Assembly: GCA_964572155.1 (NCBI GenBank)
Contig: CAZNDZ010000001.1
Coordinates: 974,290-1,038,289, forward strand
From: an uncultured Planctomycetales bacterium
GTDB taxonomy: Bacteria > Omnitrophota > Gorgyraeia > Zapsychrales > Fredricksoniimonadaceae
DNA: 64,000 nucleotides
Direction of reading: 5' to 3'
Below, piece by piece: positions 26,287-44,479 of the stretch. The position numbers were made by a program, and so were the translations under genes. The notes beneath the pieces were generated by a model that had not been told where the DNA came from, did not search any database, and was given only the letters and a program-made list of their open reading frames with translations. Numbering within the stretch: the first letter of the stretch is position 1; each line of letters begins with the position of its first letter.

Positions 26287-26967
26287 ATGAAAAAACTTTA
26301 TATTGTCCTCATAGTTATTGTTATCACCATTGTTGGATTAAGCTTCGTAAAAAATTTCTTAATCAAATCAACCGTTGAATTTGGAGCCACTCAAGTTCTA
26401 GGAGCCCCTGTTCATATTGGAAGCATGTCAGTCGGTCTTTTTAGTCAGACCGCTGATATCAAAGCATTAACTGTTCAAAATCCAGCGGGTTTTCCCGATG
26501 GTGAATTATTAAATATCACCCATGTTCGTGTTGACTATGATTTAGCACAGGTGCTTAAAGGCAATATTCATCTGCGCGCATTGGTGCTTAATTTAAAAGA
26601 AATGAATTTGATCAAAGATAAGAATGGTAAGTTGAATGTCAATGCGTTAAAGATTGCGGAGAACAAAGACCCCAATGCTAAGGTGCCACCATTTACCATT
26701 GATACGCTGGTCTTAGATTTAGGTAAAGTGCATTATTGGGATTATAGCTTTGTTCCGCCAGGTCATCATGAGTATGATATCAATATCCATGATAAAACAT
26801 ATCATGATATCAAAAGCGCAGAGAAATTTGCAGCGCTGGTCATGATGGAATCATTGACACCGACGAAGGTTAAAAGTTTGGTCAATTTTGGATTTAATAC
26901 GGTCGACAAAGTCTTTGGTACGGTCAAAGACGCCGGTTCATTAATTAAGGGTTTAATTAAACCATGA
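26287..26967 (+). CDS. membrane-anchored hypothetical protein
   Basis: 226 aa; N-terminal TM helix. Confidence 0.4.
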   Translation: MKKLYIVLIVIVITIVGLSFVKNFLIKSTVEFGATQVLGAPVHIGSMSVGLFSQTADIKALTVQNPAGFPDGELLNITHVRVDYDLAQVLKGNIHLRALVLNLKEMNLIKDKNGKLNVNALKIAENKDPNAKVPPFTIDTLVLDLGKVHYWDYSFVPPGHHEYDINIHDKTYHDIKSAEKFAALVMMESLTPTKVKSLVNFGFNTVDKVFGTVKDAGSLIKGLIKP

Positions 26968-27524
26968 TGATAGAAGAGAGTAGCGACATGACAGAACATA
27001 AGATTAGAACATTTTTTGCAGCCATCGTTTGTGCCTTTACCATTTTGGGGGTTTCTAGTTGCGCATTATTTCCCTTAAGTTCAAAACCAGAAGCAAAAAA
27101 AGCCGACGTGCCTGCAGCTGTAGTAAAAAAGGAAGAAGCGCCCGCACCTGCTGCGGTTGCTAAAGTTGAGGCACCAAAGAAGGAAGAAGTAAAAGAAGCA
27201 GCTGCGCCTCTTGTGGCTGAAGTTAAAGAGGATAAAGAAGAAGTAGCTAAATCTGATGATGCAACAGTGTTGAATAATAGCGCTAATGCCGTTTGGTTAG
27301 CTTCTTTAAAAGCAATTAAACAAATCGGATTGATTAGCAAACAAGAATTATTAGCCCGTCATATTCAAGCACGTGTGCGTGGTGCAGATGTACATATCAC
27401 AATTGAGAAACTTGGAGCCCAAAGTGTCCGTTTAACCGTTAAAGCCACCCGTGAATCCGGCAATGACGCGGACCTAAGTGCTGAAATATTTAATAAAATT
27501 AAGGACTTAGCCAAGGTTTTCTAG
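26964..27524 (+). CDS. hypothetical exported protein with Ala/Lys/Glu/Pro low-complexity linker
   Basis: 186 aa; N-terminal hydrophobic segment with ...GVSSC lipobox-like cysteine; AKKEEAP-type repeats. Confidence 0.4.
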   Translation: MMIEESSDMTEHKIRTFFAAIVCAFTILGVSSCALFPLSSKPEAKKADVPAAVVKKEEAPAPAAVAKVEAPKKEEVKEAAAPLVAEVKEDKEEVAKSDDATVLNNSANAVWLASLKAIKQIGLISKQELLARHIQARVRGADVHITIEKLGAQSVRLTVKATRESGNDADLSAEIFNKIKDLAKVF

Positions 27525-27527
27525 GGT

Positions 27528-29195
<1,668 letters not shown>

Positions 29196-29202
29196 TTTGG
29201 AC

Positions 29203-29292
29203 GGAGAGGTGGCCGAGTGGTTGAAGGCGCACGCCTGGAAAGCGTGTGGACGTGAAAGCGTCTCGAGAGTTCGAATCTCTCCTTCTCCGCCA
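29203..29292 (+). tRNA. tRNA-Ser (anticodon GGA)
   Basis: GGAGAGG..CTTCTCC acceptor, long variable arm, anticodon loop CTGGAAA, GTTCGAATC T-loop, GCCA end; 7 nt after ABC-F stop. Confidence 0.85.
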
Positions 29293-29303
29293 GATTTTTC
29301 TCT

Positions 29304-29398
29304 AAGCGTTAGTTCACCAACCTGAAGGAGGGGAACTAACGCAATACTAGAGAAAAATCAAGGATGCCTGTGAGCCAACAGGCGAGTAGGCGCCGCCA
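29304..29398 (+). ncRNA. conserved structured element (copy 1): hairpin + conserved 3' module ending GGCGCCGCCA
   Basis: ~85% identical to 57674..57769 in the 3' 60 nt; 5' hairpin GCGTTAGTTC/GAACTAACGC covaries with the GCGATGAACTTTT/AAAAGTTTATCGC stem in copy 2. Confidence 0.45.
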
Positions 29399-29420
29399 GT
29401 CCCCGCACAGAGCATGGACA

Positions 29421-29438
29421 GACGAGTCGGCGCCGCCA
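29421..29438 (+). repeat. partial tandem reiteration of the element 3' motif (GACGAGTCGGCGCCGCCA)
   Basis: Near-duplicate of GGCGAGTAGGCGCCGCCA 23 nt downstream of copy 1. Confidence 0.4.
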
Positions 29439-29599
29439 GCCACGGATTAAGTCCCGCGCAAATACATTCATCATTTTTCCCTCTTAATAAATCATCTCCA
29501 ATTCTTTTACACACATCTATACTTTCTTAAAAAGTTAGTTATAGTAATAAATGGTATGGTTTTCATAAGATCAAAGATTTTAAGAAATAATAGAAAATT

Positions 29600-31672
29600 A
29601 TGACAAAACATTTTTGGCCCAAGCGATTTATGACTTGGCGGGATTTGATTATTACACCCGCAATTGAAGGGCTACTTTTTTTTATTTCTATCAAAGCTGG
29701 GCTTTATACCTATCGACAACGTCCTGATTTGTTTTTGGCTTTTATTGTTTCGTATGCAACGTTAATTTTCGGGACTGTCGTGGTATTGATAATTCTTCGC
29801 AGAATCGCTCCCGTGCGTGAAGGAAAATTTTCTCGTGAAGAGGAGCCGGGACGATTTTATGTTTGGAAACTGCATCAGTTTCTATCGCTGATTAATCTGT
29901 ACATTCACTATCAAAATAGTCTCTTACCGCCGCCAATTCGAAAATTTTTTAGCCGTCTTTTGGGAGCTAAAATGGGAAAAGGTTTGATTTCCATTGGTGG
30001 GCTGATGATAGATCCTTACCTTATTGAAGTTCAAGAAAATGCCATGATAGGGCGTGATGTTCTGATTTTGCCTTCAATATTAGATCAAAAAGAGCTCACG
30101 TTACGCCGCATTGTAGTTAAATCCGGGGCTGTTATAGGAGCGCGGTCCGTGCTTTTGCCAGGGGTCACGGTAGGAAAAAGTGCAATGGTAAAAGCAATGT
30201 CGTTAGTACCTGAGGGAACTGTCATTGGAGATTACGAAATTTGGGGAGGCATTCCAGCCCAAAAGATGGGTGAAATTCCAAGACCAGAAACTCCTGCAGA
30301 GCCAAGATTTGGGGCATGGCGGGACATGGTGATTAGTCCTTTGGTTGAACTGTTTTTATTAACGCTTTCAGGCTGGGGAGCATGGTGTGTGGTTAGTAAG
30401 TACGGTGGAGGACTTTTTGTAGCCATGCTTGCAGGGTATATATTCTTGGTAGCATCGACGATCATTTTTATTCGGATTTTGCAGGCAATTTATCCTTTTC
30501 GATCAGGAACCTTTTCTTTTGAAAAGCAACCTGAAGTTTGTTATTTATGGAATTTAAAAGAATTCTTATGCATTATGAATCTCTTTATCCATTACCAAAA
30601 TGGTCTTGTACCGTCTTCACTACAAAAGTTGTTTATGTGGCTTTTAGGAATGCCCTGGAAAACAAGAAACGGCTTACTCTCAGCGAGTGGGGTCATTACT
30701 GATCCGAGTCTTGTTGAATTAGAAGAGGGAGTTATTCTTCATCATGACGCTTTTCTTTTACCTCATGCGGTAGCAGTAGATTCCTTGGTGTTAAAAAAAA
30801 TTAGCATTAAACGCGGCGCTTTAATTGGTGCCCGTGCTATGATCATGCCTGGAGTGACGGTGGGTGAATACGCCCAGGTGTTACCGATGTCATTGGTTAC
30901 GATGGACAAAACGATTCCTTCTTACGAAATATGGGGCGGAGTTCCTGCCCGCAAAGTGGGAGAAGTTCCTCGGATGTCCAGAGAAGTCGAAGGATCCTAT
31001 AGTACAACAAATATTTGGGATCGGGTGATAACAATCGGCGTCGAAATCTTTTTAGGATTTCTGGCATGGCAGGGTATGAAGATTGTGGAAAAATTTCTTA
31101 CTCTTGACCTCTTTGGAAAAATATTAGTTCTTTATCTTCTTTTTAGTTTGGCAACTATTGTTGTACTGATGTTTATTCGAACCATTTTTCCTTTTTGGCA
31201 AGGAGTTTATCGACAAAAGGAATATCCTGCTATTTTTACAATATGGCGTTTGCACGCCTTCTTGTGTATAACCAACTTGTTTTTGTTTTATCAAAATGGG
31301 CTTTTGCCGCCTCCCTTGCGGAAATTTTTCATTATGCTCCTTGGAGCTCGGGTTAGGTTAAACGATGTGTTATCTATCGGAGGCATCGTCGCAGATCCTT
31401 ATTTCTTCTCGATTGACGACAATGCTATGATCTTAACCGATGTTTTGATTATGCCGGTTTGCATAGGTCAAGGTGAAATCCGATTGAAGAAAATTGAGTT
31501 ACGAGAAAGAGCTATTGTTTGTGAACGCGTTATACTCATGCCAGGGGTCAGGGTAGGGGAAGGGGCATATGTTATGCCAATGTCCTGGGTCCAGGAAGAT
31601 ACCAAAATTGGCCCTGGCGAAATTTGGGCAGGAATTCCCGCCCAAAAGGTTGGTATGGTTAATGAAAGCTAG
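29600..31672 (+). CDS. triplicated transmembrane hexapeptide-repeat (left-handed beta-helix) transferase-like protein; resembles the tandem C-terminal domains of Pls-type NRPS-like polymerases
   Basis: 690 aa made of three ~230-aa homologous units, each with 2 TM helices, an NL(Y/F)IHYQN(G/S)L(L/V)PxxxxK(F/L)F..LLG block, a GAR..PGV.VG hexapeptide block and a terminal EIWGG(I/V)PA(Q/R)K(V/M)G motif. Confidence 0.6.
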   Translation: MTKHFWPKRFMTWRDLIITPAIEGLLFFISIKAGLYTYRQRPDLFLAFIVSYATLIFGTVVVLIILRRIAPVREGKFSREEEPGRFYVWKLHQFLSLINLYIHYQNSLLPPPIRKFFSRLLGAKMGKGLISIGGLMIDPYLIEVQENAMIGRDVLILPSILDQKELTLRRIVVKSGAVIGARSVLLPGVTVGKSAMVKAMSLVPEGTVIGDYEIWGGIPAQKMGEIPRPETPAEPRFGAWRDMVISPLVELFLLTLSGWGAWCVVSKYGGGLFVAMLAGYIFLVASTIIFIRILQAIYPFRSGTFSFEKQPEVCYLWNLKEFLCIMNLFIHYQNGLVPSSLQKLFMWLLGMPWKTRNGLLSASGVITDPSLVELEEGVILHHDAFLLPHAVAVDSLVLKKISIKRGALIGARAMIMPGVTVGEYAQVLPMSLVTMDKTIPSYEIWGGVPARKVGEVPRMSREVEGSYSTTNIWDRVITIGVEIFLGFLAWQGMKIVEKFLTLDLFGKILVLYLLFSLATIVVLMFIRTIFPFWQGVYRQKEYPAIFTIWRLHAFLCITNLFLFYQNGLLPPPLRKFFIMLLGARVRLNDVLSIGGIVADPYFFSIDDNAMILTDVLIMPVCIGQGEIRLKKIELRERAIVCERVILMPGVRVGEGAYVMPMSWVQEDTKIGPGEIWAGIPAQKVGMVNES

Positions 31673-31683
31673 TTATATAATTC

Positions 31684-32910
31684 ATGACTCGAAAAAAACG
31701 CATATTATTTATTGGTGAAGGTGGCAGTCTGGCGCATATTGTGAGGCCTTTGGTTTTGGCTAAGCTTTTGGATCCAGAGCGGTTTGAAATTTCTTTTGCC
31801 TGCGCCCTGTGGTATAAATGGTTGCTAGATCATAGTGGCTTTCAATATTTTCCTTTGCCAACAATGACGCGAGATGACTTTCGTGATCATTTGAGTGCAG
31901 GACAGCCGCTCTATAATCGTGCGACATTAGAAGAGTATGTTGCGGCAGAATTAGATTTATTTAAAAAACTTTCGCCGGACTTAATTGTTGGTGATTTTCG
32001 AATTTCTCTTGGGGTATCAACCCAGTTAACCAAAATACCATACGCGGCTATTTCGAATGCGTTTTGGAGTCCTAATTCGACGTTAAAGAAGATTGTACCA
32101 GATTTAGGTTTTCTGAAATTTACAGGCAGAGAACTTGGACAACTTATTTTTGATCTGGCATATCCAATTGCAGCAACAACAACTCATAGCCATGGTTTTA
32201 ATGCGGTACGCAAATCATATGGGCTTGAACCCTTTAAAAGGCTGGAAGAAATATATACATTCGCGGATTGGACGCTATATACCGATATCCCAAGTTTGGC
32301 TCCAACTAAGGTTTTAGGAGAAGGCGAGCAGTACATGGGGCCGATCTTGGATATGCCTCAAATTGAGCAGCCGACATGGTGGCAACAGTGGCCTAAAGAC
32401 AAACCCATTGTTTATGTTGGTTTAGGATCAACTGGAAATATTACGCTCATGGAGAATATCATTGAAGCGTTATCGCAAATGGACGTAACTGTTTTATTAG
32501 CCACGGCGCAGCGGGTGAATCGCAAAGAATGGCCCAGTAATTTTTTTGTAGCTCCTTATATCTCAGGGCTTGAAGCATCAGCACAATCACAACTTATTTT
32601 ATATAACGGTGGCTCAGGGAGTGTTTATCAGGCTTTGTCCTGTGGGCGTCCTGTTTTAGGCTTTCCGACGAATATGGACCAATTTTTATGTATGTCCTTG
32701 ATTGAAACAAAAATGGCTGGTAAGAAAATTATTGGCACTTCAGCCAATGTGAATAACATTAAAGCCAATGTTGCAGAAATTTTATCTAATCCAGGGTATA
32801 GTCAAGGTGCGCAAGCTTTAGCGCAGGAAATAAAGCAATATAAAGTGGAAGAAAATTTCCCCAAGTTTATTGATGCTTGGGATAAAGGCATTCTCAAACG
32901 GAGATCCTAA
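31684..32910 (+). CDS. MGT-family (UDP-glycosyltransferase/macrolide-GT-like, GT1) glycosyltransferase
   Basis: 408 aa; N-terminal ILFIGEGGSLAHIVRPL acceptor-domain start, C-terminal LILYNGGSGSVYQALSCGRP..G.P donor-binding signature. Confidence 0.75.
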   Translation: MTRKKRILFIGEGGSLAHIVRPLVLAKLLDPERFEISFACALWYKWLLDHSGFQYFPLPTMTRDDFRDHLSAGQPLYNRATLEEYVAAELDLFKKLSPDLIVGDFRISLGVSTQLTKIPYAAISNAFWSPNSTLKKIVPDLGFLKFTGRELGQLIFDLAYPIAATTTHSHGFNAVRKSYGLEPFKRLEEIYTFADWTLYTDIPSLAPTKVLGEGEQYMGPILDMPQIEQPTWWQQWPKDKPIVYVGLGSTGNITLMENIIEALSQMDVTVLLATAQRVNRKEWPSNFFVAPYISGLEASAQSQLILYNGGSGSVYQALSCGRPVLGFPTNMDQFLCMSLIETKMAGKKIIGTSANVNNIKANVAEILSNPGYSQGAQALAQEIKQYKVEENFPKFIDAWDKGILKRRS

Positions 32911-32911
32911 T

Positions 32912-34531
32912 ATGGATGAAAATATAATATCAACAGAGTGGGATTATATCATTGTCGGTACAGGCATGGGCGGCGCAACAATTGGCTATGCTTTGGCAAA
33001 AGCAGGAAAGAAGGTTTTGTTTTTAGAAAAGGGGCAGGACTATCAAAATAATCCCAAAGCTTTAAAAGGAAATTTTTTAGAAGAGTTTATTTCAAAAGAA
33101 GATGTTCAAGGTACTGCGGGTGATTATTGTAATGCTGGTCGGGCAAATATGGAAATCTGGGATGCTGCCAATGGCAAAACCTTAAAACCTCTCTTGGGTT
33201 CTGGTAGCGGTGGATCAACGGCACTTTTTGGGATGGTCATGGAGCGACTATGGCCCCAAGATTTTGAACCAAAAAAATATCATCCCAATGCGGACAAGGA
33301 CTGTTCGCTTCCAGAACGGTGGCCTATTACCTTTGCAGAGATAGAGCCATATTATCGTCAAGCAGAATGGTTGTATGGCGTGACCAGTACATGGCCAGAT
33401 CCAATGCGCGCAGATCAAACTTTTAGTTATAGGCCTGGGCCAGAACCAATGCCTAAAACATTACGTTTAATGAATGCCCTCAAGAAGCGCGGTTATCATC
33501 CATATTTATCGCCCTTGGCGTTGGATTGGGTTCCTGATTGTAAGTTCTGTCAAAGCTACTTATGTGAAAAAAATTGTAAGAATGACGCGGCAAAGATTTG
33601 CCTTAACCCTTCACAAAAGAAATTTGGAGCTACGTTATTAACAAATTGTGAGGTCTTGCGTTTAGATGCGGATGAGCATCGTGTTCGCTCTGTGCAAGCG
33701 CGTTATCAAGGCAAGGAAATTACATTAAAGGGGCGGTATGTGATTTTAGCGACGGGTGCGCTATCAACGCCGCTGTTGTTATTGCAGTCGAGCTCCAATA
33801 TTTGGCCCAATGGTTTAGCCAATCGCTCCGGTCTTGTTGGGAAAAATCTGATGCGTCATTACATTGATATTTTGGCATTGTTCTCGCGTACGCCATTCCC
33901 AAAAAACTCGACACTTAAGGAGATCGCTTTAAGTGATTTTTATTGTGTTAAAGGGGAAAAGTTTGGCATCATAGGATCTTTTGGACATATGCCACCTACA
34001 ATGATGGTCTTAAATGATATAGAAAATGATATGCGAAGTCATGGTTCTAAATTTGCATCGCTTTTTCATGCCATGCGTCCTCTAACGGGTTGGTTCTTAT
34101 CTAGATTATTAGATCAGGCGGGTTATGCATCTTTGATATTAGAAGATCTTCCTTATCCGGATAATACCGTATCGTTGCGTAAAGACGGGAATGGCTCACA
34201 AATGGCTGTCAATTATCGCATTCGTCCATCGGAATGGGAACGCATTAAGCGTTTTCGCACCATGGCCCAGAAAGCATTTGCACCAAATCCGATGATGCTA
34301 ATGCCTCAGGCTGATAACTTAAAGTTTTTAGCGCATGCTTGTGGAACGTGTCGTTTTGGAGATGATCCTGCTTCGAATGTTCTAAATAAATTTAATCGCA
34401 CGCATGATGTAGAAAATTTATATATTATTGATGCATCATTTTTCCCCTCAAGTGGTGGATCAAATCCAGGGTTGACCATTGCCGCCAATGCCTTGCGAGT
34501 GGCGGATCATTTGATTGCTAAGGATGTTTAA
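32912..34531 (+). CDS. GMC-family FAD-dependent oxidoreductase
   Basis: IIVGTGMGGATIGYALAKAGKKVLFLEKG FAD-binding fold; C-terminal GMC signature; start taken as the ATG 2 nt after the GT stop. Confidence 0.75.
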   Translation: MDENIISTEWDYIIVGTGMGGATIGYALAKAGKKVLFLEKGQDYQNNPKALKGNFLEEFISKEDVQGTAGDYCNAGRANMEIWDAANGKTLKPLLGSGSGGSTALFGMVMERLWPQDFEPKKYHPNADKDCSLPERWPITFAEIEPYYRQAEWLYGVTSTWPDPMRADQTFSYRPGPEPMPKTLRLMNALKKRGYHPYLSPLALDWVPDCKFCQSYLCEKNCKNDAAKICLNPSQKKFGATLLTNCEVLRLDADEHRVRSVQARYQGKEITLKGRYVILATGALSTPLLLLQSSSNIWPNGLANRSGLVGKNLMRHYIDILALFSRTPFPKNSTLKEIALSDFYCVKGEKFGIIGSFGHMPPTMMVLNDIENDMRSHGSKFASLFHAMRPLTGWFLSRLLDQAGYASLILEDLPYPDNTVSLRKDGNGSQMAVNYRIRPSEWERIKRFRTMAQKAFAPNPMMLMPQADNLKFLAHACGTCRFGDDPASNVLNKFNRTHDVENLYIIDASFFPSSGGSNPGLTIAANALRVADHLIAKDV

Positions 34532-35370
34532 TGAGTGTTGTGCGCAGACAACTTGATGTAACACAATTAAAAGGGGATTGGGCTTTAGTTACCGGAGCTT
34601 CAGCTGGTATAGGTAAGGAATTCTGTATTCAACTGGCTCAACATGGCATGAATGTTATCATGGTGGCCAGACGTCAACATCTTTTAGATGCCTTGGCACA
34701 TCAGCTTGAAGATGATTTTAAGATCAGATGTTTGCCCATTGCATTAAGTTTAGATGACCCTCAATCAATTACGAAGATTAGAAAAGTTGTTAATGCTGAA
34801 AAAATCAAGATCCGATTGCTCGTTAATAATGCTGGTATAAATTATTATGGACGATTTGAATCGATGGATGCTGGACAGAATATTCAAATGATGTATTTGA
34901 ATATAGTTGCTGTCTCATTATTGTGTAGAGAATTTTTAAATGATCTTAAGGATTTTCCGACGAGTGCTATAGTCAATATTTCATCTCAAGCTGCTCTTAA
35001 TCCAATTCCAGGGGCAGCCTTATATGCAGCGACCAAAGCATTTGTGCATAGTTTGAGTTTGTCTTTGTATGAAGAACTTAAACGTACAAGTGTCATCGTG
35101 CAAACGGTAATTCCATGTCCTACAGAAACGGAATCTTCACGCAGCACAGATGTAAGATTTGGGAAGATAAAGGGCTGGCGAAGTGTAACAGAAGTTGTTA
35201 AGATTTCATTAGATCATTTAAAAATAGATGAGCCTGTTACCGCAATTGCCGAAAATCTTTTTATACAAAAACTTTTTGTCAATTTAATGTCAGAGAAAGT
35301 AGTTTTAGCCAAAATGGGCTCAATCTTTTTAGACAGAAATGTATTTAATAAAGATAAGGAGATGGAATGA
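34531..35370 (+). CDS. short-chain dehydrogenase/reductase
   Basis: [11 protein letters not shown] and YAATKAF (YxxxK). Confidence 0.75.
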
Positions 35371-36233
35371 AAGGTATTATCTTAGCGGGAGGCAGGGCAA
35401 CAAGGCTTTATCCAATTACCAAAGGGGTCTGCAAACAGCTTTTGCCAATTTACGATAAGCCGATGGTTTATTATCCGTTGTCAGTACTCATGCTTGCTGG
35501 CATTAAAGATATTCTGATCATATCCACGCCTGATGATTTACCTAAGTTTGAAAATCTTTTTGGGGATGGAAAGTGGCTCGGGGTAAAGATTTCTTATGCC
35601 GTTCAGCATCAACCAAAAGGTATTGCGCAGGCCTTTCTCGTGGCTGAGGAATTCATTGATAATAAACCAGTGTGTTTGGTTTTGGGTGATAATATCTTTT
35701 ACGGCGGCAATTTACCAAAATATCTAAAGCAAGCAGTGAGCATTAAACAAGGCGCCACTGTCTTTGGTTATAATGTCACCGATCCACAGCGCTATGGTGT
35801 GGTCTCATTTAATAAGAATATGAAAGCAGAATCTATCGTTGAAAAACCAGTAAATCCTAAATCTAGTTGGGCAGTGACGGGGTTATATTTTTATGATAAT
35901 CAAGTCGTTAAGATTGCCAAAGCATTAAAGCCGTCTGCACGAGGTGAGTTAGAAATTACGGATGTCAATAAAGTGTATTTGGCTAAAAAGAAATTAAATG
36001 TGCAATTGATGGGGCGTGGGTACGCGTGGCTCGATACTGGTACATATCAATCATTAATTGATGCGTCGGTGTTTATTAAAACTATAGAAGAACGTCAGAA
36101 TTTGAAGATCGGTTGTATTGAAGAAATTGCGTATAAACAAGGTTGGATCAATAAGTCCCAATTATTAGCCTTAGCCAAAGGAATTCCGACAAGCTATGGT
36201 GAATATCTAAAAAGGATTGCGATAAATGAATAA
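35367..36233 (+). CDS. rfbA: glucose-1-phosphate thymidylyltransferase
   Basis: [33 protein letters not shown]-terminal signature; 288 aa. Confidence 0.9.
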
Positions 36234-37059
36234 AGATATCTTAATTATAGGTGATGGTTATATCGGTCGTAAATTATCAAAGGCGCTTAATGCACGCTTA
36301 TCGGCCAAACGTGTTCGTTTTTATGAAGACGTTGAAGGATTGGTTAAGAAATATCGTCCTAAGATTTTGATCAATACAATCGGCCATGTGGGTAAATCTA
36401 ACGTTGATGATTGCGAAAAGGCAGTGGATAAGACCCTTAATGCAAATACCTTTGTGCCTATTCTCATGGCGGAAGTGGCTTTGCGTTACAATATTAAGTT
36501 AGTCCATATTAGCAGTGGATGTATCTATCATTACAAATATGGCCATCAGAAACCTATTCTAGAAAGTCGCAATCCAGATTATTACGATTTATTTTATAGC
36601 CGTACAAAAATTTATACAGAAGATGCGTTACTGCGTTTGTCACGCAAAAAAAACATGGTTAATATTTTGATCGTGCGCATTCGCGTGCCTTTAGACAATG
36701 TGCCAAATCCCAAGAACTTACTGACCAAGTTAATCAAGTATGGTAAGGTGATTGATGCGCCTAATTCAGTGACGTATATTCCAGATTTTATTGAGGCTCT
36801 AAAGCATTTGATTCGCAAAGACGCTAAGGGTTTATATAATGTTATGGCGGATGGGGCTTTGTATTATCCAGACTTGATGAAGCTTTATCAAAAATATGAT
36901 CCTAAGTTCAAATTCGAGATCATCAAGCTTAAGAATTTGTCATTAAAACGTACCAGTCTAATCATGTCGACGACAAAATTACAAAAAAGTGGTTTTAAAG
37001 TAAGACCTATCAAGGAGATAATAAAAGAATGCGTGGAAAATTACACACAATCCTCGTAA
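36226..37059 (+). CDS. dTDP-4-dehydro-6-deoxyhexose reductase (RfbD-like NAD(P)-dependent reductase)
   Basis: 277 aa; [13 protein letters not shown] nucleotide-binding start, YSRTK (YxxxK); positioned between rfbA and rfbB. Confidence 0.6.
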
Positions 37060-38036
37060 CGGGGGCAGCAGGTTTTATTGGTAGTGAATTTGTTAGGCAG
37101 AAAGTTAAAGACGCAAATGTTAAAATCATTGCGGTTGATAAGCTAACCTATGCGGGTGATGTTAAGCGATTTGCAGAGGTCAAAAATAAATTTAAATTCT
37201 ATAAAGCTGATATTTCTAATCGTGTTCAATTGGAGCGTGTTTTTAAAGCCCATCGTCCTGATACCATTATCCATTTTGCCGCTGAAACGCACGTTGATAG
37301 AAGCATCCGTGATGTCTGGCCGTTTATATCAACGAACGTAAATGGCACACAAAATTTGATTGATTTGGTTCGAAAATATAAAACCCCCAAAATGGTGCAT
37401 ATTTCAACCGATGAGGTTTATGGTGATAGCCATAAAGGATGGTTTAAAGAAACCGATCAAATTAAAGCTAACAATCCATATTCTGCAACGAAAGCCGCCG
37501 CTGAACATTTGATTAGAGCTGCGATACGCACATATCAATTTCCAGCCATCATTATACGCCCGTCGAATAATTATGGGTATTGGCAATATCCTGAGAAATT
37601 AATCCCCGTGGTCATTTTAAAGGCTTTGAATAATGAACGGGTTCCAGTTTATGGGAAGGGTAAGCAGGTTAGAGAATGGCTTCATGTTAGCGATTGCGCT
37701 AGAGCTGTGGATACGATTTATAAAAAAGGTAAAATTGGAGAGACCTACAATATAGGTACGTATTATGAACAAGAAAATATTAAGACCGTTGAAATGATTT
37801 TAAAACGTATGAATAAACCAAAGAGTTTAATTCAGTTTGTTCCAGATCGTCTAGGTCATGATTTCCGCTATTCTGTCGATTGTTCGAAACTTGAAAAGTT
37901 GGGTTGGAAGCCAAAGGTTGATTTCACATCTGGTCTTGATCATACCGTGACGTGGTTTTTAGATAACTTGCCATGGGTTGAACAAAAACGAAAAGTGATT
38001 AAATCGTTTTGGGACAAGGTTTATAAAATGAAATAG
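37029..38036 (+). CDS. rfbB: dTDP-glucose 4,6-dehydratase
   Basis: [25 protein letters not shown] motifs; 335 aa. Confidence 0.9.
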   Translation: MRGKLHTILVTGAAGFIGSEFVRQKVKDANVKIIAVDKLTYAGDVKRFAEVKNKFKFYKADISNRVQLERVFKAHRPDTIIHFAAETHVDRSIRDVWPFISTNVNGTQNLIDLVRKYKTPKMVHISTDEVYGDSHKGWFKETDQIKANNPYSATKAAAEHLIRAAIRTYQFPAIIIRPSNNYGYWQYPEKLIPVVILKALNNERVPVYGKGKQVREWLHVSDCARAVDTIYKKGKIGETYNIGTYYEQENIKTVEMILKRMNKPKSLIQFVPDRLGHDFRYSVDCSKLEKLGWKPKVDFTSGLDHTVTWFLDNLPWVEQKRKVIKSFWDKVYKMK

Positions 38037-38136
38037 CCTTGTTTGGTAATAAAAATGATTAATAACATGCTATTTATGATATAGTACCCATTCGTTGTTT
38101 TTTGGTATTTTACTTTAGGAAATACAAATTTCACTA

Positions 38137-41100
38137 ATGGCTAATGCTGTTAGGGTTTTTTTATCGCAAAGGATTGTAATGCCGATTGTTAAGGACGATA
38201 AGAGCTTAGAGCGTGTCGCGGGTGAGGTGGCTTTTCAGCGGGGGATGAGTTATTACCGAAAAGGTGCGGTTAAGACCGTTGCACGTAAGGGTAATTATTT
38301 AGAAGGTTTGGTCCAAGGATCAGATACCGATCCGTTTCATGTGCGGATTTTGATCAAGGGCTTAGATAATTTTCGTTTAGCAGAATGCACGTGTCCCTTC
38401 AAATTGGGAAGCATGTGCAAGCATGCCGTTGCTGTTTTGTTGCATTGGAATCATTATGTGGCGATCAACCATACCGTTGATTTAAGCAAAATGATTTTCT
38501 TAGACGAGAAGCAGCTGCGTTTAAATGCGCAGCAGAAACCAGTGGTTAAGGCAGTTACCGAATCGTCGACAAAATCAGAAGCAAAGCCTAAGCCAAAGAG
38601 GCCAAGTTATCTTCTACCTGCTTATGAATATAGGTCCCCACAAAAGCCGCGTATCCAAATTGCCTTTGCCTTAAATGGCTTCAATGGTAATGGCTTAAGA
38701 AGCATACCGTTTAAAATCTTTATCATTCACAGCGACATAAAACTTTCCGTCACAAATTTACGTGTCTTAATCAATCAAAATAATGCGCGGGATTCAAAAC
38801 AATTTAAGTTTTCAACGTTAAGCGCGTCTCAGCAACATGTCTTGCATTTGCTCAATGAGTTTTCCGTCATGGATGGAAGTCGAGACAATGGTTTTGCAGT
38901 GCCGCAATTTAAAATGAAGCGCATGCAATGGGCCATCTGTTTAGGCGTTATGGCCAAGTGTGAAGATCTTGAATTTGTCGATATTAAAACCAATCAAGCC
39001 ATAACTGTAAATGCACTAGACAAGTTAATACTGAGCATCCATATCCGTCAGATGGAGCAAGGGCAATGGGGCGTTACGGCAACATTCAAAGATCCTAATA
39101 ATGCTACGCGTGATTTTAGTCATGTGCATATTCAAGAAGGTCAGCCGGTATGGTTATATGATGAGGCCATTCCAAGTTTTCAAATGATGCATGAGTCGAT
39201 AAGTCATGCATTTTTAGTCGATTTTCTTAATAATGAACGCGTCCTTGATTTACCTCAAATCCCATATTTTATGACCAGTGTCCTTGATTCATTACGATCA
39301 TCGTGTGAGATCATAGGAGATGTCGACGCAATTCAAAAAGCCACCTTTATCAAGCCAACATTAAAGTCTCGTTTAGATTTAAACTATGTGAAGAATGCAG
39401 TCCGCGCTAAGTTGTCATTTATTTATGATAACGGCACGGCATATGCCTATGAAGGGGATATGAGTTTAGAGCGCTATGCCATGGTGGGAGATGATAAAGC
39501 CATGCAATGGGTTGTGCGTGATCTCGATGAGGAAAATGCCAAGGTGTCTTTTCTTCTCAAAGATTGTGGTTTTGAATGGGGTAAGAATTCTAAAACCTTT
39601 TCATTAACAGGTTCTGATGAGATCCTAGGATTTGTTTATCAAAAGTTGCCAATGTTGCGACGATCCATGGAAGTTCATTGTTCTAAAGATTTTGAAGCAA
39701 AATTATTAAACAACAATTTCTTTGAGCCTGTGGTACGACTGACAGGAAGTGGTATTGACTGGTTTGAGTTTGATGCGGTTTACAAAGTTAAAGGTTTAGA
39801 TGAAACCATCACGCACGAGAAAATAAAGCGGTTAATCGCAGAAGGGCAGAACTTTATTCGATTAAAGAAGGGTGAGATTTTACCCATCCCGCTTGAATTT
39901 TACGAACGCATTGAGCAGTTAAACGAAGAGTTAGACACTAAGAAGATCCATTTATCCCAAATCCCATTTGTGATGGATGAGTTAAAGCGCCAAGGTTTAA
40001 CTTCAGACGTTGATCAAAATTTATCCACGTTATATCGAGATTTGAAAAACTTTCAATCCATCGAGCCGGCAACCGTCCCTGATTCAGTTAAGGAAGTCCT
40101 GCGTGATTATCAACATAAGGGTGTGGATTGGTTATCGTTTTTAAAGCGTTTTAAGTTTGGTGGTATTCTGGCTGATGAAATGGGTCTTGGTAAAACGTTG
40201 CAGGCATTGACCATGGTTCAGTTGGAAATAGAAGCAGGAAATGCCATGCCATCCTTAGTCGTGTGCCCAACAACGTTAGTTTGGAATTGGCATGAAGAAA
40301 TAAAGAAGTTCTTACCTAATGCCCGCGTATTAATTCTAAATGGAAATCATCGTCGTGATTTATTTGATCAAATCAAAGATGCGCATGTGGTCATCACATC
40401 ATATCCATTATTGCGTCGTGATATTGAGCTTTATAAGAAATTTTCTTTTAATTATGTCATTTTAGACGAAGCTCAAAATATTAAGAATCGTCATACACAA
40501 AATGCACAAGTAGCCAAGTCATTAAAAGCCACGTATCGTCTTGCCATGACGGGTACGCCCATTGAGAACAGCATCATGGATTTGTGGTCGATCTTTGATT
40601 TCTTAATGCCTGGCTTTTTAGGTAATGCGAATAACTTCAAGAAGCGTTATGAAATACCTATCACTAAGTTTCAAGATAAAGATCAGTTAACCAAACTTTC
40701 AAGCCGTATCTTGCCGTTTGTCTTAAGACGTCTTAAGAAAGACGTTATTAAAGATTTGCCGGATAAGATCGAACAGATTTCATATTGTGAGTTGGAACCA
40801 ACACAGGCTAAGATTTATACGAAGATGATTGAGTCGGCACGTGACATTGCAACCAAGAGCGTGGCCACCCAAGGTTTTGAAAAAAGCCGTATGGTGATCT
40901 TAACGTTGATCTTGCGGCTACGCCAAATTTGTTGTCACCCCATCATCGCACAAGTCGATCTTGGGCATCGCAATGTTTCAGGTAAGATGGAATTGCTTAA
41001 AGAGACATTAGCAGAGTTATTATCTGGTGGGCACAAGGTTTTGATCTTTAGCCAATTTGTTTCGATGCTTAACTTTATGGAAGATTATTTGAAACGTGAA

Positions 41101-41490
41101 GATATTGCCTATGCATATCTTGATGGGTCGAGCAAAGACCGTCAAGGCGAGGTCGAGCGTTTTAATCAAGATCCTAACCTAAAAGTTTTCTTATTAAGTT
41201 TAAAAGTAGGTGGTGTAGGTTTAAATTTAACGTCTGCAGATACGGTCATCATCTACGAACCATGGTGGAATCCCGCTGTTGAAAACCAAGCCATCGACCG
41301 TGTTCACCGCATCGGCCAAAATAATTCTGTCTTAGCCTATCGTTTAATCACCAAAGGCACCATCGAAGAAAAAATGCTAGAACTCCAAAACCGCAAACGC
41401 TTTCTCATGGATTCTCTAGTTTTATCTGAAGACAGCATCGGCAAAAAGCTTGATTGGGAAGATATTAAGTTCCTGTTGGATATGAAATAG
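38137..41490 (+). CDS. SNF2-family DNA-dependent ATPase/helicase with N-terminal SWIM zinc finger
   Basis: CxC..CxH SWIM (ECTCPFKLGSMCKHAVAVLLHW); DEMGLGKT, DEAQNIKN, helicase-C (LKVGGVGLNLTSADTV..E..WNPA...QA.DR.HRIGQ). Confidence 0.8.
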   Translation: MANAVRVFLSQRIVMPIVKDDKSLERVAGEVAFQRGMSYYRKGAVKTVARKGNYLEGLVQGSDTDPFHVRILIKGLDNFRLAECTCPFKLGSMCKHAVAVLLHWNHYVAINHTVDLSKMIFLDEKQLRLNAQQKPVVKAVTESSTKSEAKPKPKRPSYLLPAYEYRSPQKPRIQIAFALNGFNGNGLRSIPFKIFIIHSDIKLSVTNLRVLINQNNARDSKQFKFSTLSASQQHVLHLLNEFSVMDGSRDNGFAVPQFKMKRMQWAICLGVMAKCEDLEFVDIKTNQAITVNALDKLILSIHIRQMEQGQWGVTATFKDPNNATRDFSHVHIQEGQPVWLYDEAIPSFQMMHESISHAFLVDFLNNERVLDLPQIPYFMTSVLDSLRSSCEIIGDVDAIQKATFIKPTLKSRLDLNYVKNAVRAKLSFIYDNGTAYAYEGDMSLERYAMVGDDKAMQWVVRDLDEENAKVSFLLKDCGFEWGKNSKTFSLTGSDEILGFVYQKLPMLRRSMEVHCSKDFEAKLLNNNFFEPVVRLTGSGIDWFEFDAVYKVKGLDETITHEKIKRLIAEGQNFIRLKKGEILPIPLEFYERIEQLNEELDTKKIHLSQIPFVMDELKRQGLTSDVDQNLSTLYRDLKNFQSIEPATVPDSVKEVLRDYQHKGVDWLSFLKRFKFGGILADEMGLGKTLQALTMVQLEIEAGNAMPSLVVCPTTLVWNWHEEIKKFLPNARVLILNGNHRRDLFDQIKDAHVVITSYPLLRRDIELYKKFSFNYVILDEAQNIKNRHTQNAQVAKSLKATYRLAMTGTPIENSIMDLWSIFDFLMPGFLGNANNFKKRYEIPITKFQDKDQLTKLSSRILPFVLRRLKKDVIKDLPDKIEQISYCELEPTQAKIYTKMIESARDIATKSVATQGFEKSRMVILTLILRLRQICCHPIIAQVDLGHRNVSGKMELLKETLAELLSGGHKVLIFSQFVSMLNFMEDYLKREDIAYAYLDGSSKDRQGEVERFNQDPNLKVFLLSLKVGGVGLNLTSADTVIIYEPWWNPAVENQAIDRVHRIGQNNSVLAYRLITKGTIEEKMLELQNRKRFLMDSLVLSEDSIGKKLDWEDIKFLLDMK

Positions 41491-41606
41491 TTGACTTTGC
41501 CTTACAAATATGCAAAATGTTTTAAAGAAGCCCTTCGTCCGTTTTACTCCTGCCGCTTCTGAAGTTAATTAATCGTTATAGTCTAAAACCTATCAGGAGG
41601 GCTTCC

Positions 41607-42638
41607 ATGCTACCTAAAAGCTACGGCGTTTTTCTATCTGATTTAAAAAAACGTATTGTACAAGAGCGTTTAAAAGTCGTTTTGTCCACCAATGCTGCAT
41701 TAGTAATGATGTATTGGGATATAGGTCAAGCAATCTTAAATAAACAAAAAGAAGAAGGTTGGGGCACAAAAGTCATTGATAGATTGTCGTTAGACTTAAG
41801 TAAGTCTTTTCCTGACATGAGTGGTTTCTCACCAAGAAATTTGAAATATATGCGTGCGTTTGCTGAAGCGTGGAAAAATAGATCAATTGTGCAGCGGGCC
41901 GTTGCACAATTGCCTTGGAGGAGTAATATTGCATTATTAGATAAGTTAGAAACAATTCAAACAAGGTTATGGTATGCACAAAAAACAATTGAGTGTGGAT
42001 GGAGTAAAGATATTTTATGTGTTCAGATTGAAAATCAATTACATTTACGACATGGGAATATAACACATAATTTTGTAGAATCTTTGCCACCAACAGAATC
42101 TGATATGGCTCAACAGATATTTAAAGATCCATATCTCTTTGATTTCTTAGGAACAGGTGATCCAAGAAGAGAAGCTGAATTAGAACAAGGCTTAATGGAT
42201 CATATACAGAAGTTTCTTTTAGAGTTAGGGGCTGGTTTTGCCTTTGTTGGTCGTCAAGTTCGTCTTGAATTAGGTGGTGATGAGTTCTTTATTGATTTGT
42301 TATTTTATCATCTAAAACTTCGTTGTTACGTTGTTATTGAGTTAAAAGCTGTGGCATTTGATTCTGGGCATATTGGTCAATTAAATATGTATTTAAACGT
42401 AGTTGATGATATATTCCGTCATCCAGATGATAAGCCAACTATAGGTCTGCTTTTAGTTAAACATAAGAATAAGATGGTTGCTGAATATGCATTGCGTGGA
42501 TTTAAAAAGCCGATTGGCGTTGCTCAATGGGAAACAGAGATAACACGTTCATTGCCAAAGAAACTTAAAACAAGTTTGCCAACCATTGAAGAGCTTGAAA
42601 CAGAATTGAGTAAAGATGTATCCAGTAAGGGTAAATGA
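41607..42638 (+). CDS. YhcG-like PD-(D/E)XK nuclease family protein (DUF1016)
   Basis: 343 aa; C-terminal GFAFVGRQ..DLLFYH..YVVIELK PD-(D/E)XK core. Confidence 0.6.
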   Translation: MLPKSYGVFLSDLKKRIVQERLKVVLSTNAALVMMYWDIGQAILNKQKEEGWGTKVIDRLSLDLSKSFPDMSGFSPRNLKYMRAFAEAWKNRSIVQRAVAQLPWRSNIALLDKLETIQTRLWYAQKTIECGWSKDILCVQIENQLHLRHGNITHNFVESLPPTESDMAQQIFKDPYLFDFLGTGDPRREAELEQGLMDHIQKFLLELGAGFAFVGRQVRLELGGDEFFIDLLFYHLKLRCYVVIELKAVAFDSGHIGQLNMYLNVVDDIFRHPDDKPTIGLLLVKHKNKMVAEYALRGFKKPIGVAQWETEITRSLPKKLKTSLPTIEELETELSKDVSSKGK

Positions 42639-42679
42639 TGGTAAGATTTCTGCATCAAAAATTTATTTAAGGAAATAAA

Positions 42680-44479
42680 ATGTCACAAATTCTCGAACAC
42701 AAACTAGATATTTTAAAATCGGTTTTTGGTTATCAATCGTTTCGGCCGTTGCAGGAGGCGTGTATTGATGCGGTTTTAAATAAGCAGGATACATTGTTGC
42801 TCATGCCAACGGGTGGGGGTAAGTCGATTTGTTATCAGATTCCTGCGTTGATGTTTGATGGGTTGACTGTTGTTATCTCGCCGCTGATTTCGCTCATGAA
42901 GGATCAGGTGAGCCAATTAAAAGCGTTGGGTGTTGAGGCGGAGTTATTAAATAGTTCATTGACGTGGGAAGAATATGCGTATAACAAAGATCGTATTGTA
43001 TCTGGTGTAACCAAGCTGTTGTTCTGCGCGCCTGAGACATTATTTAAAGAAGAGATTTTAGATATGCTCGGGTCCTTAAAGATTGATTGTATCACGATCG
43101 ATGAAGCACATTGTATTTCGGAGTGGGGGCATGATTTTAGGCCAGAATATCGTCGGATAAAAGATATACGCCATTTATTTCCGGATGCAGTCTATTTAGC
43201 AGTGACCGCAACAGCTACACCTCAAGTGCGCCAAGACATCATTGTAAATTTAAACCTTAAGAAACCCTTACAACTGGTTGCTAGTTTTAACCGTGATAAT
43301 TTATTCTATGAGGTAACCCCGCGTAATCGTGGCACGGATCAAGTGGTGGAATTCTTAGAGAGATTTCGTGGCTTAAGCGGCATCATTTATTGTTTTTCGC
43401 GCAAGCAAGTCGACCAATTAACCAAGGATTTAAAACATTTTGGATTCAAAGCATTGCCGTATCATGCAGGTTTAAGCGACGACGTGCGTCATAAAAATCA
43501 AGAAGCGTTTATCCGCGACGATGTGCCCATCATGGTTGCAACCATTGCCTTTGGGATGGGGATTAACAAGCCAAACGTTCGTTTTGTCATTCATCATGAT
43601 TTGCCCAAAAATATTGAGTCTTATTATCAAGAGACGGGTCGTGCAGGGCGCGATGGTTTGCCGTCGCATTGTTTGTTGTTATTTTCTGCAGGTGATGGTG
43701 CGAAAATCCGTTATTTTATTGATCAAAAACCAGACATCGCCCAGAAACGCGTCGCGACCAATCATTTAAACACCATGATGGCCTATGCCCAAGCACACAC
43801 ATGCCGACGCATCCCATTGATCACATATTTCGGGGAAGACTACAAAATAGAAAATTGCGGGCAATGCGATAATTGTGTCAACGGTCATGCAGCGCCTGAG
43901 AATATTACGGTTGAAGCCATCAAATTTTTGCAATGTGTAAGCGAGACGGAAGAACGCTTTGGCGCGGTTTATGTCATTAACATTTTACGTGGTAGTCAGA
44001 TTGAGAAAGTTTTGCAAAACAATCATGATACCTGTGCGACCTTTGGTGCAGGCAAGCATTTAACTGTCTTGCAATGGCAACATTTGGTGTCACAATTCTT
44101 AGCTCAAGATTTGATTAGTAAGAGTGAGGATTATGGTGTCATTAGTCTTAATCAAAACGCTTATGAGGTTCTAAGCGGCAGGCGTTTGGTTTCAGGGTAT
44201 CATTTAGAAGAAGCTAAAAGTTCTAAGAAGACAACCCGACGTGTGGAAGGCCTTGGTGATACTGACCCCGAAGCCGCTTTATTTGAACGTTTGCGCGTTT
44301 TACGTAAACGATTAGCCGATGAAAAAAGTGTACCGCCCTACATTATTTTTTCTGATAAGACCTTACTTGATATGTGCAAACGCAAACCTAAAACCAAGGC
44401 ACAATTTGCGCAAGTTTATGGGGTGGGGGATCAAAAGTTACAAATGTATTGCGATGTTTTTATTTCTGCAATAGGATAA
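42680..44479 (+). CDS. recQ: ATP-dependent DNA helicase RecQ
   Basis: MPTGGGKS, DEAHC, zinc-binding CxxC..C..C RQC region, C-terminal HRDC; 599 aa. Confidence 0.9.
   Translation: MSQILEHKLDILKSVFGYQSFRPLQEACIDAVLNKQDTLLLMPTGGGKSICYQIPALMFDGLTVVISPLISLMKDQVSQLKALGVEAELLNSSLTWEEYAYNKDRIVSGVTKLLFCAPETLFKEEILDMLGSLKIDCITIDEAHCISEWGHDFRPEYRRIKDIRHLFPDAVYLAVTATATPQVRQDIIVNLNLKKPLQLVASFNRDNLFYEVTPRNRGTDQVVEFLERFRGLSGIIYCFSRKQVDQLTKDLKHFGFKALPYHAGLSDDVRHKNQEAFIRDDVPIMVATIAFGMGINKPNVRFVIHHDLPKNIESYYQETGRAGRDGLPSHCLLLFSAGDGAKIRYFIDQKPDIAQKRVATNHLNTMMAYAQAHTCRRIPLITYFGEDYKIENCGQCDNCVNGHAAPENITVEAIKFLQCVSETEERFGAVYVINILRGSQIEKVLQNNHDTCATFGAGKHLTVLQWQHLVSQFLAQDLISKSEDYGVISLNQNAYEVLSGRRLVSGYHLEEAKSSKKTTRRVEGLGDTDPEAALFERLRVLRKRLADEKSVPPYIIFSDKTLLDMCKRKPKTKAQFAQVYGVGDQKLQMYCDVFISAIG

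Follow-up and report, generated by a model that had tools for sequence, protein, structure and literature searches.

A membrane protein of three fused hexapeptide units heads a sugar-nucleotide and glycosyltransferase operon in an uncultured Omnitrophota bacterium

Introduction

What does a membrane protein built from three acetyltransferase-like units do at the head of a run of sugar genes? The question is raised by a gene at positions 29600 to 31672 of a 64,000-nucleotide (nt) stretch, hereafter the window, of contig CAZNDZ010000001.1 (assembly GCA_964572155.1), from an uncultured bacterium of the Omnitrophota. Its product, hereafter the triple protein, has 690 residues and repeats three times a unit made of two transmembrane (TM) helices and a left-handed beta-helix of the hexapeptide type. 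A first-pass annotation of the window likened it to the C-terminal module of epsilon-poly-L-lysine synthetase (Pls), a non-ribosomal peptide synthetase (NRPS)-like enzyme, deprived of its adenylation (A) and thiolation (T) domains.

Soluble hexapeptide acyltransferases are homotrimers with their active sites at the subunit interfaces. The C1-C3 domain of epsilon-poly-L-lysine and delta-poly-L-ornithine synthetases joins aminoacyl units iteratively, and we know of no ancestry established for this polymerising domain. Here we find that the triple protein is homologous to the Pls domain and that, judged by sequence, it is a member of a broader, uncharacterised group of 2TM-beta-helix proteins and not of the Pls/PosA family. 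The explanation that we favour, with about even chances of being right, is a single-chain, pseudo-trimeric membrane acyltransferase acting on a membrane glycoconjugate.

Results

The triple protein is an internal triplication

The gene and its parts are as follows.

29600..31672, + strand: 690-residue open reading frame (ORF) of three tandem units, each with a membrane hairpin of two helices, a conserved helical block and a beta-helix domain of the left-handed hexapeptide type (translation, Pfam, MAFFT, AlphaFold2, BLASTP)
29600..30283, + strand: unit 1, residues 1-228, the most conserved unit of the family with 39 invariant positions; Ser159 at the catalytic-His column
30284..30970, + strand: unit 2, residues 229-457, holding the family-invariant LLPHA motif
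30764..30766, + strand: codon of His389, candidate catalytic base (His counts of the column, alignment A1)
30971..31669, + strand: unit 3, residues 458-690, the least conserved unit; Val at the His column

The three units can be aligned end to end with 38-42% identity (MAFFT). Compared with each other by BLASTP they give E values of 1.4e-62, 8.6e-58 and 3.0e-48 (146-182 bits), while the top score among 300 shuffled unit controls is 25 bits. The internal triplication claimed by the first-pass annotation is thus confirmed over the full length of the units. Both motifs that it quoted are present in all three copies: an NL(Y/F)(I/L)(H/F)YQN block at residues 99 (NLYIHYQN), 327 (NLFIHYQN) and 559 (NLFLFYQN), and an EIW(G/A)G(I/V)PA motif at residues 213 (EIWGGIPA), 443 (EIWGGVPA) and 674 (EIWAGIPA). 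The first motif nevertheless has to be corrected for unit 3, which reads NLFLFYQN and does not end in IHYQN.

The Pfam matches of the ORF are to hexapeptide-repeat families only, Hexapep scoring 56.8 bits for a gathering score of 27. With its repeats and beta-helix fold the protein belongs to the hexapeptide superfamily, and a candidate catalytic His is found in unit 2 only, with Ser in unit 1 and Val in unit 3. In the family alignment the beta-helix regions of all three units are strongly conserved (63-75 of 228 columns at >=80%). Conservation of residues 1-10 (MTKHFWPKRF) in a 70%-identical homologue (P0002) that has no Met at position 11 favours a start at 29600; the NCBI gene call (P0001, 680 residues) begins at Met11 of the 690-residue ORF.

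Predicted fold, membrane helices and orientation

A model of the 690-residue protein was built with AlphaFold2 on an alignment of 17 family sequences. Its mean predicted local distance difference test score (pLDDT) is 83.2 and its predicted template modelling score (pTM) 0.84. Each third of the chain runs through the same series: a pair of long helices, then a short strand, two or three short helices and finally a beta-helix. The long helix pairs span residues 13-40/44-69, 240-268/272-297 and 472-499/504-529, so that the three beta-helices alternate with helix pairs, as had been expected from the letters.

Helix 2 of every pair is strongly hydrophobic (Kyte-Doolittle maximum over 19 residues of 2.45-2.92) and helix 1 only moderately so (1.40-1.67). 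Hydropathy, the model and homology together predict six membrane helices. A Glu lies in the middle of helix 1 of each unit (E23, E250 and E482, at about nt 29666, 30347 and 31043). E23 is invariant in unit 1, and most family members keep the Glu in units 2 and 3; it is not kept in the single-unit relatives described below. The N-terminus carries four Lys/Arg against one in the inter-helix turn, and the stretch behind helix 2 carries five, but also four Asp/Glu. From this simple charge count the beta-helices would be cytoplasmic.

The published AlphaFold model of the PosA domain has six bent helices and three five-turn left-handed beta-helices in approximate three-fold symmetry, each beta-helix being preceded by a strand and two core helices (PMC10522769). 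The predicted order of secondary-structure elements in the triple protein is the same. From this PosA model and the pTM value of the compact single-chain model, the three units may pack as a pseudo-trimer with His389 at an interface.

The triple protein is homologous to the Pls/PosA domain and lies outside its family

Among NCBIfam models the best match is TIGR02353, the Pls/PosA NRPS terminal domain (E 5.4e-53, in three stretches). A search with hidden Markov models (HMMs) had been expected to return Hexapep and this terminal domain, and it did: the former above its gathering score, the latter below its cut-off, with 180.4 bits for a curated value of 423.1. The second NCBIfam match, NF058585 (heptaprenylglyceryl phosphate O-acetyltransferase), scores 84 bits for a cut-off of 300. 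The likeness to a Pls C-terminal module therefore stands as homology and as a common predicted architecture, and fails as family membership.

Several features are common to both. In the triple protein and in the Pls/PosA terminal domain a unit is repeated three times in tandem, with a TM helix pair followed by a strand, core helices and a left-handed beta-helix of five turns; both have a C-terminal W-G-x-PA motif; and in both a single unit keeps the catalytic-type His. Others differ. The Pls/PosA units sit C-terminal of A and T domains in proteins of ~1300 residues, whereas in the 690-residue triple protein unit 1 begins at about residue 10, with no AMP-binding or PP-binding match. The triple protein has its His in unit 2 and lacks the QTHLFEDR motif, whereas the Pls His is in C3. 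Finally, the partners of the triple protein and its homologues are a family 1 glycosyltransferase (GT1), a short-chain dehydrogenase/reductase (SDR) and fatty-acid ligases, not amino-acid activating enzymes.

Homologues were collected by a word-indexed search of 5.8 billion proteins and by an exhaustive profile search of 1.84 billion representatives. The first gave about 22 full-length standalone triple homologues, annotated at most as "acetyltransferase-like isoleucine patch superfamily enzyme". Their named sources are an Omnitrophota metagenome-assembled genome (MAG; locus L001, 70% identity) and Elusimicrobiota MAGs, and L001 was also the single relative found by a scan of genome contigs. 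The second search gave 205 matches below 1e-30, ranked in a clear order: 7 triple-family clusters (at 50% identity), then ~80 clusters of 220-260 residues, then Pls-like synthetases of ~1300 residues. Thus all of the ~80 single-unit "2 TM + beta-helix" clusters rank above every Pls-like NRPS.

With an HMM made from the family units, the single-unit proteins are covered from about position 5 to 226 of 228, membrane hairpin included, with 135-270 bits, and Pls units score 16-99 bits. When the match starts at model position <=20, 62 of 67 short proteins have at least two hydrophobic stretches before the beta-helix. The best curated match of these proteins is again TIGR02353 (52-83 bits), and no curated model covering single-unit 2TM + beta-helix proteins was found. 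The triple protein shares with this group full-length unit homology, helix pair included, and TIGR02353 as best match below threshold. By these comparisons the membrane-anchored hexapeptide acyltransferases form a wider, uncharacterised group in which the Pls domain is one branch.

At the level of the unit the single-unit proteins are the closest relatives (~220-260 residues; e.g. P0028 / MBL1319662.1 from a Methylophaga MAG, annotated "acyltransferase" or "hypothetical"). They resemble the triple protein in the whole-unit match, in the His at the catalytic position (93%) and in the GT1 neighbour. They differ from it in having one unit per chain, being presumably homotrimers with three equivalent sites, and in a much less conserved NLFxHYQN block. 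Soluble sugar O-acetyltransferases (maltose/galactoside O-acetyltransferase, NeuO, VCA0836) are more distant in design: homotrimers of ~180-220 residues, without TM hairpin, helical block or triplication. NF058585 proteins and LpxA/LpxD are, like the putative activity proposed here, hexapeptide acyltransferases with lipid or lipid-precursor acceptors, and LpxA/LpxD use carrier-protein thioester donors, as suggested below for one related locus; they are however soluble or peripheral and not triplicated.

A literature search brought up no publication on 2TM hexapeptide proteins, whether standalone triple or single-unit. Literature and Protein Data Bank (PDB) sequence searches found no solved Pls C-domain, the PDB matches being single beta-helix enzymes only; dTDP-sugar N-acyltransferases (AntD, QdtC, FdtD, VioB) account for many of the nearest solved structures. 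Three-unit matches of 400-1000 residues were considered as standalone Pls-type proteins. Most are fragments that start within A/T domains or at a residue other than Met; a few, on short contigs, start with Met at unit 1 and may be such proteins. One relative is split in two, P0021/P0047, of 457 residues (units 1 and 2) and 217 residues (unit 3). Both pieces are probably on one 13,621-nt contig; the split may be a genuine division into two genes or the effect of a frameshift.

A single unit keeps the catalytic-type histidine

In the triple family the His column is occupied by His in 22 of 23 units 2, in 5 of 23 units 1 (mostly Ser) and in 2 of 21 units 3. The single-unit relatives have it in 76 of 82 cases (93%). 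Among Pls-like proteins it is found in C3 (44/48, within the motif QTHLFEDRVMK), in C1 (15/48) and in C2 (1/48); the C3 His/QTHLFEDR is here an empirical feature of 44 of the 48 sampled proteins, not a published criterion. The pair H389-A390 is invariant in the family alignment A1. We take His389, by motif reading, to occupy the position of the catalytic His of maltose/galactoside O-acetyltransferases. It is thus a candidate catalytic base, and the protein would have a single canonical active site. The contrast between the retention of His in unit 2 here, in unit 3 in Pls and in most single-unit copies offers a handle on which interface of the pseudo-trimer is catalytic.

The triplication looks independent of that of Pls

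Is the triple protein a Pls module that has lost its A/T domains, or a parallel construction? This was judged from matrices of HMM cross-scores and of identities. Units of the family score on average 215-237 bits against each other and 210-245 bits against the single-unit HMM. Against any Pls unit HMM the means are 60-100 bits, and all three units score best against C1. The mean identities follow the same order: 0.37-0.38 among family units, 0.32-0.34 to single-unit proteins and 0.21-0.25 to Pls units. Neither matrix shows the diagonal that would pair unit 1 with C1, unit 2 with C2 and unit 3 with C3.

Since there is no unit-to-unit correspondence, and since the His is kept in unit 2 here vs C3 in Pls-like proteins, the triplication looks parallel to that of Pls and independent of it, rather than a Pls module shorn of its A/T domains. 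The simplest reading would be that a homotrimeric single-unit enzyme was fused into one chain at least twice, and that on each occasion two of the three sites decayed, with a different unit keeping the His. One ancient triplication common to Pls and to the triple family, followed by very uneven divergence, is formally conceivable. A neighbour-joining tree of 306 unit sequences gave no resolution on this point (distances saturated, support <=6 of 100 bootstraps). Equivalent units of different family members are 47-54% identical; therefore the triplication predates the radiation of the family and is not being homogenised.

The triple gene heads a seven-gene operon

The triple gene is the first of seven genes on the same strand between 29600 and 38036, separated by gaps of +11, -41, -1, -4, -8 and -31 nt. 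The six others are the following.

31684..32910, + strand: GT1-family glycosyltransferase with an EryCIII-like C-terminal domain, MGT-like (Pfam PF06722; NCBIfam MGT weak); begins 11 nt past the stop codon of the triple gene
32870..34531, + strand: GMC-family FAD oxidoreductase of sugar-dehydrogenase type (Pfam GMC_oxred_N/C)
34531..35370, + strand: SDR (Pfam adh_short; best NCBIfam match mycolate reductase, 137 bits, below cut-off)
35367..36233, + strand: RmlA, glucose-1-phosphate thymidylyltransferase (TIGR01207, 463.6 bits, above the cut-off of 360.65)
36226..37059, + strand: nucleoside diphosphate (NDP)-4-keto-6-deoxyglucose 3,5-epimerase/4-reductase-like protein of 277 residues (weakly RmlD-like, 39 bits; 4qqr, E 6e-29)
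37029..38036, + strand: RmlB, dTDP-glucose 4,6-dehydratase, whose gene closes the operon (TIGR01181, 402.1 bits, above the cut-off of 365.1)

The PDB relatives of the GT1 are CalG1 and OleI, a rhamnosyltransferase being marginal (E 2e-4). For the GMC protein the closest solved relatives are the FAD glucose dehydrogenase 6a2u/8hdd (E 3e-28) and the large subunit of fructose dehydrogenase. The listed TTG start of its gene (32870) overlaps the GT1 gene by 41 nt; the start is probably the ATG at 32912, which is in frame, just before the FAD-binding GxGxxG motif and 1 nt past the GT1 stop. The protein encoded at 36226..37059 matches 4qqr, a plant bifunctional NRS/ER, and also the UDP-L-rhamnose synthase 7jid (E 4e-19). 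Such a bifunctional 3,5-epimerase/4-reductase would explain the absence of rmlC from the operon. NDP-L-rhamnose would then be made in the host bacterium by three enzymes, encoded by rmlA, the epimerase/reductase gene and rmlB, and plausibly the operon makes an NDP-L-rhamnose-type sugar and transfers it.

The first-pass annotation had placed the gene at the head of a sugar-nucleotide/glycosyltransferase cluster and had seen A and T domains neither in the ORF nor in its surroundings; both statements hold. There is no A or T gene in the operon, and no room for one because the genes from 29600 to 38036 are contiguous. The only AMP-binding gene of the window, at 11431-12912, lies 17 kb upstream in a thiolase/FadB beta-oxidation cluster, and was for this reason ruled out as a specific partner supplying the donor in trans.

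A glycosyltransferase and lipid-type genes recur near relatives

We examined 12 triple-family loci (L001-L011, L091-L093, some redundant) and 79 further loci from a metagenome scan, mostly single-unit. On either side of the beta-helix gene the loci cover at most 10 kb, an extent that serves as an internal control for the proximity of GT1. A homologue of the window GT1 (phmmer, E down to 4.5e-90) is present in 25 loci. All but one of these have it within 5 kb of the beta-helix gene, which makes 24 of 90 related loci, and in 16 the distance is less than 300 nt. Single- and triple-unit forms behave alike in this respect, and the window GT1, 11 nt downstream of the triple gene, is a neighbour of the kind seen in the 2TM + beta-helix group.

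The SDR is a second recurrent partner. In P0009 (960 residues) an SDR is fused N-terminally to the triple protein, with E 3.5e-96 to the window SDR. In L008 an SDR ORF (E 8.4e-86) lies ~650 nt upstream of the triple gene, past a divergent GDSL lipase gene, and in L007 directly upstream of it (E 3.4e-36). Downstream of its triple gene L008 has RmlA, the epimerase/reductase and RmlB. The GMC oxidoreductase has a close homologue in L030 (E 3.9e-140), where its gene overlaps the GT1 gene by 8 nt, next to a single-unit gene.

Adenylating enzymes are found near several homologues. In L010 (8003-12091) a fatty acyl-AMP ligase (352 bits), a 99-residue PP-binding carrier (23.8 bits for a gathering score of 20.8) and the triple gene follow each other with gaps of 1 and 11 nt. 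In L007 (12111-15144) the C-terminus of a FadD11-like ligase runs into GT1, by fusion or frameshift. Fusions of GT1, AMP-binding and ABC1 (UbiB-like kinase) domains occur in L002 (22774 onward, 1448 residues) and L010 (14329-18858, 1509 residues). All adenylating partners near homologues are of the fatty-acid ligase type; no amino-acid A domain is among them.

Other neighbours that recur near relatives are of envelope or lipid type: paired FtsX/MacB permeases with an ABC ATPase, LolA-like, DUF1302 and MMPL proteins. PEP-CTERM proteins, a FeeM N-acyl amino acid synthase, a ThiF-nitroreductase fusion and an MFS-PlsC-AMP-binding protein are also present, and near one relative a small EamA pair adjoins a FemAB-like gene.

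Two observations concern these loci in their own right. Around the single-unit loci L018, L020, L030, L040 and L053 the same set recurs, i.e. GT1, two FtsX/MacB with an ABC ATPase, LolA-like, DUF1302, ThiF-nitroreductase, PEP-CTERM and FeeM; by its gene content it looks like an undescribed cluster for envelope-lipid biosynthesis and export. L001 and L092 belong to one Omnitrophota MAG (GCA_031386565.1), which has two triple paralogues, 70% and 40% identical to the window protein. One of them shares its operon with a FemAB-like gene and the genes of two small EamA-type proteins, which resemble subunits of lipid-linked-sugar flippases.

Discussion

A pseudo-trimeric acyltransferase as the favoured explanation

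In the acyltransferase explanation three diverged "2 TM + left-handed beta-helix" copies, fused in one chain, would form a hard-wired pseudo-trimer upon a six-helix membrane base, with one canonical site left, around His389 in unit 2. The cytoplasmic beta-helices would take an acyl thioester supplied in trans, either acyl-coenzyme A (acyl-CoA) or acyl-carrier protein (acyl-ACP), and the acyl group would be moved to a sugar or lipid hydroxyl of a membrane-associated glycoside made by GT1. The acceptor would most likely be a rhamnose-type deoxyhexose glycoside or a lipid-linked sugar, GT1 using the NDP-sugar that RmlA, RmlB and the epimerase/reductase supply. Further tailoring of the glycoconjugate may fall to the GMC oxidoreductase and the SDR, and the product would be an acylated glycolipid or another acylated glycoconjugate. 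The putative dependence on acyl-CoA or acyl-ACP is suggested by the association with the ligase and carrier of L010. The first-pass annotation had foreseen a donor coming in trans and had named an acylated glycoconjugate as one of two possible products; these two proposals fit the evidence best.

Several points weigh against this explanation. The triple and single-unit families are biochemically uncharacterised, and the activity is putative. The predicted orientation comes from a simple charge count, and the proposed pseudo-trimer packing and interface site of His389 come from pTM and the published PosA model. The strongest conservation is seen in unit 1, where the His is missing; this would fit a substrate-binding role. 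The operon has no acyl-activating or carrier-protein gene. The contexts of relatives also vary: the closest homologue, L001 (70%), has no glycosyltransferase, SDR or rml neighbours; in one clade (L004, L006, L091, L093) a small methyltransferase always precedes the triple gene; another clade, L009 and L011, is in the dcw cluster, by mraZ-rsmH, after a 318-residue protein of no known function; and L005 has nothing obvious nearby. Therefore the acceptor may differ by clade, or the linkage seen in the window may be partly incidental.

Alternative explanations

The triple protein could instead be a Pls-like polymerase, for which an adenylating enzyme and a carrier encoded elsewhere deliver aminoacyl or bifunctional acyl thioesters, to be joined into a membrane-extruded oligomer or polymer. 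TIGR02353 is after all the best curated match (E 5.4e-53), the predicted architecture is that of PosA, and the row of adenylating enzyme, carrier and triple gene in L010 has the layout of a split A-T-C1C2C3 enzyme. This seems very unlikely, however: the match of 180 bits is far under the cut-off of 423, the 21-25% identity between units comes with no positional correspondence, the His is in another unit and the C3 motif is absent. Moreover the adenylating partners of homologues are of fatty acyl-AMP/CoA ligase types, the window operon has no A/T gene, and the conserved partner is a glycosyltransferase. The polymerase framing of the first-pass annotation is thus not borne out, none of these partners being an amino-acid A domain.

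A different question is whether the acceptor is soluble. dTDP-rhamnose or an intermediate could be O-acylated before its transfer by GT1, the helices being a mere tether. In favour of this, dTDP-sugar N-acyltransferases are frequent among the nearest solved structures, and the rml genes are co-transcribed with the triple gene in the window and in L008. Against it, the operon lacks an aminotransferase to make an amino-sugar acceptor, and most related loci have GT1 without rml genes. The helix pair and helical block are also common to singles, triples and Pls, which argues for a functional membrane element. We consider this acylation of the NDP-sugar unlikely, if less so than the polymerase. The least probable of the alternatives, though close to the polymerase in this respect, is a protein that is chiefly non-catalytic, a membrane scaffold or a component for export or flipping of the glycoconjugate, with a largely degenerate beta-helix trimer. 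The loss of the His from two of three units, the Glu inside helix 1 of each unit (E23 being invariant) and the recurrence of transporter genes near relatives would agree with it. One His is nevertheless kept across the family (22/23 in unit 2) and in 93% of the single-unit relatives, and the beta-helix is strongly conserved in all units (63-75/228 columns at >=80%).

What the acyltransferase would mean

The standalone triple family is rare: 7 clusters at 50% identity in 1.84 billion representatives, and ~22 proteins in 5.8 billion. The single-unit and triple group is genetically coupled to GT1 and to genes for lipid activation and lipid export. If the favoured explanation is true, uncultured phyla would make a product of new chemistry, probably an acylated deoxyhexose glycolipid. 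A wider reading, doubtful but worth stating, would make the triple protein a free-standing membrane machine for acyl transfer or ligation, which takes CoA or carrier donors in trans and builds or exports new acylated (possibly oligomeric) rhamnose-type glycolipids in little-studied phyla such as Omnitrophota and Elusimicrobiota. The Pls polymerisation domain would then derive from a widespread family of 2TM-beta-helix lipid acyltransferases coupled to GT1, in which two or more independent triplications took place, with one active site kept each time.

Other features of the window

Upstream of the operon a tRNA-Ser(GGA) lies at 29203-29292, leaving a spacer of ~310 nt before the triple gene. 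A scan of 29100-38400 for promoters and terminators gave counts at background (31 vs 26.7 expected, and 9 vs 9.1). An SNF2 helicase gene begins 100 nt beyond rmlB, and the region 38137-44479 encodes an SNF2/SWIM helicase, a YhcG-type PD-(D/E)XK nuclease and RecQ. The G+C content falls to 0.37-0.39 across 34-38 kb, vs ~0.41 elsewhere in the window. The flanks of the operon may be an island boundary.

At 1080-3047 (+ strand) the window encodes a 655-residue protein in which a class II aldolase domain is fused to an SDR domain. This architecture occurs in proteins of the rhamnulose-1-phosphate aldolase/dehydrogenase type, and the gene may give the window a second function related to rhamnose. Between groEL and an ABC-F gene, 26287-27524 (+ strand) encodes a 226-residue DUF748/AsmA-like protein and a 186-residue protein without family match.

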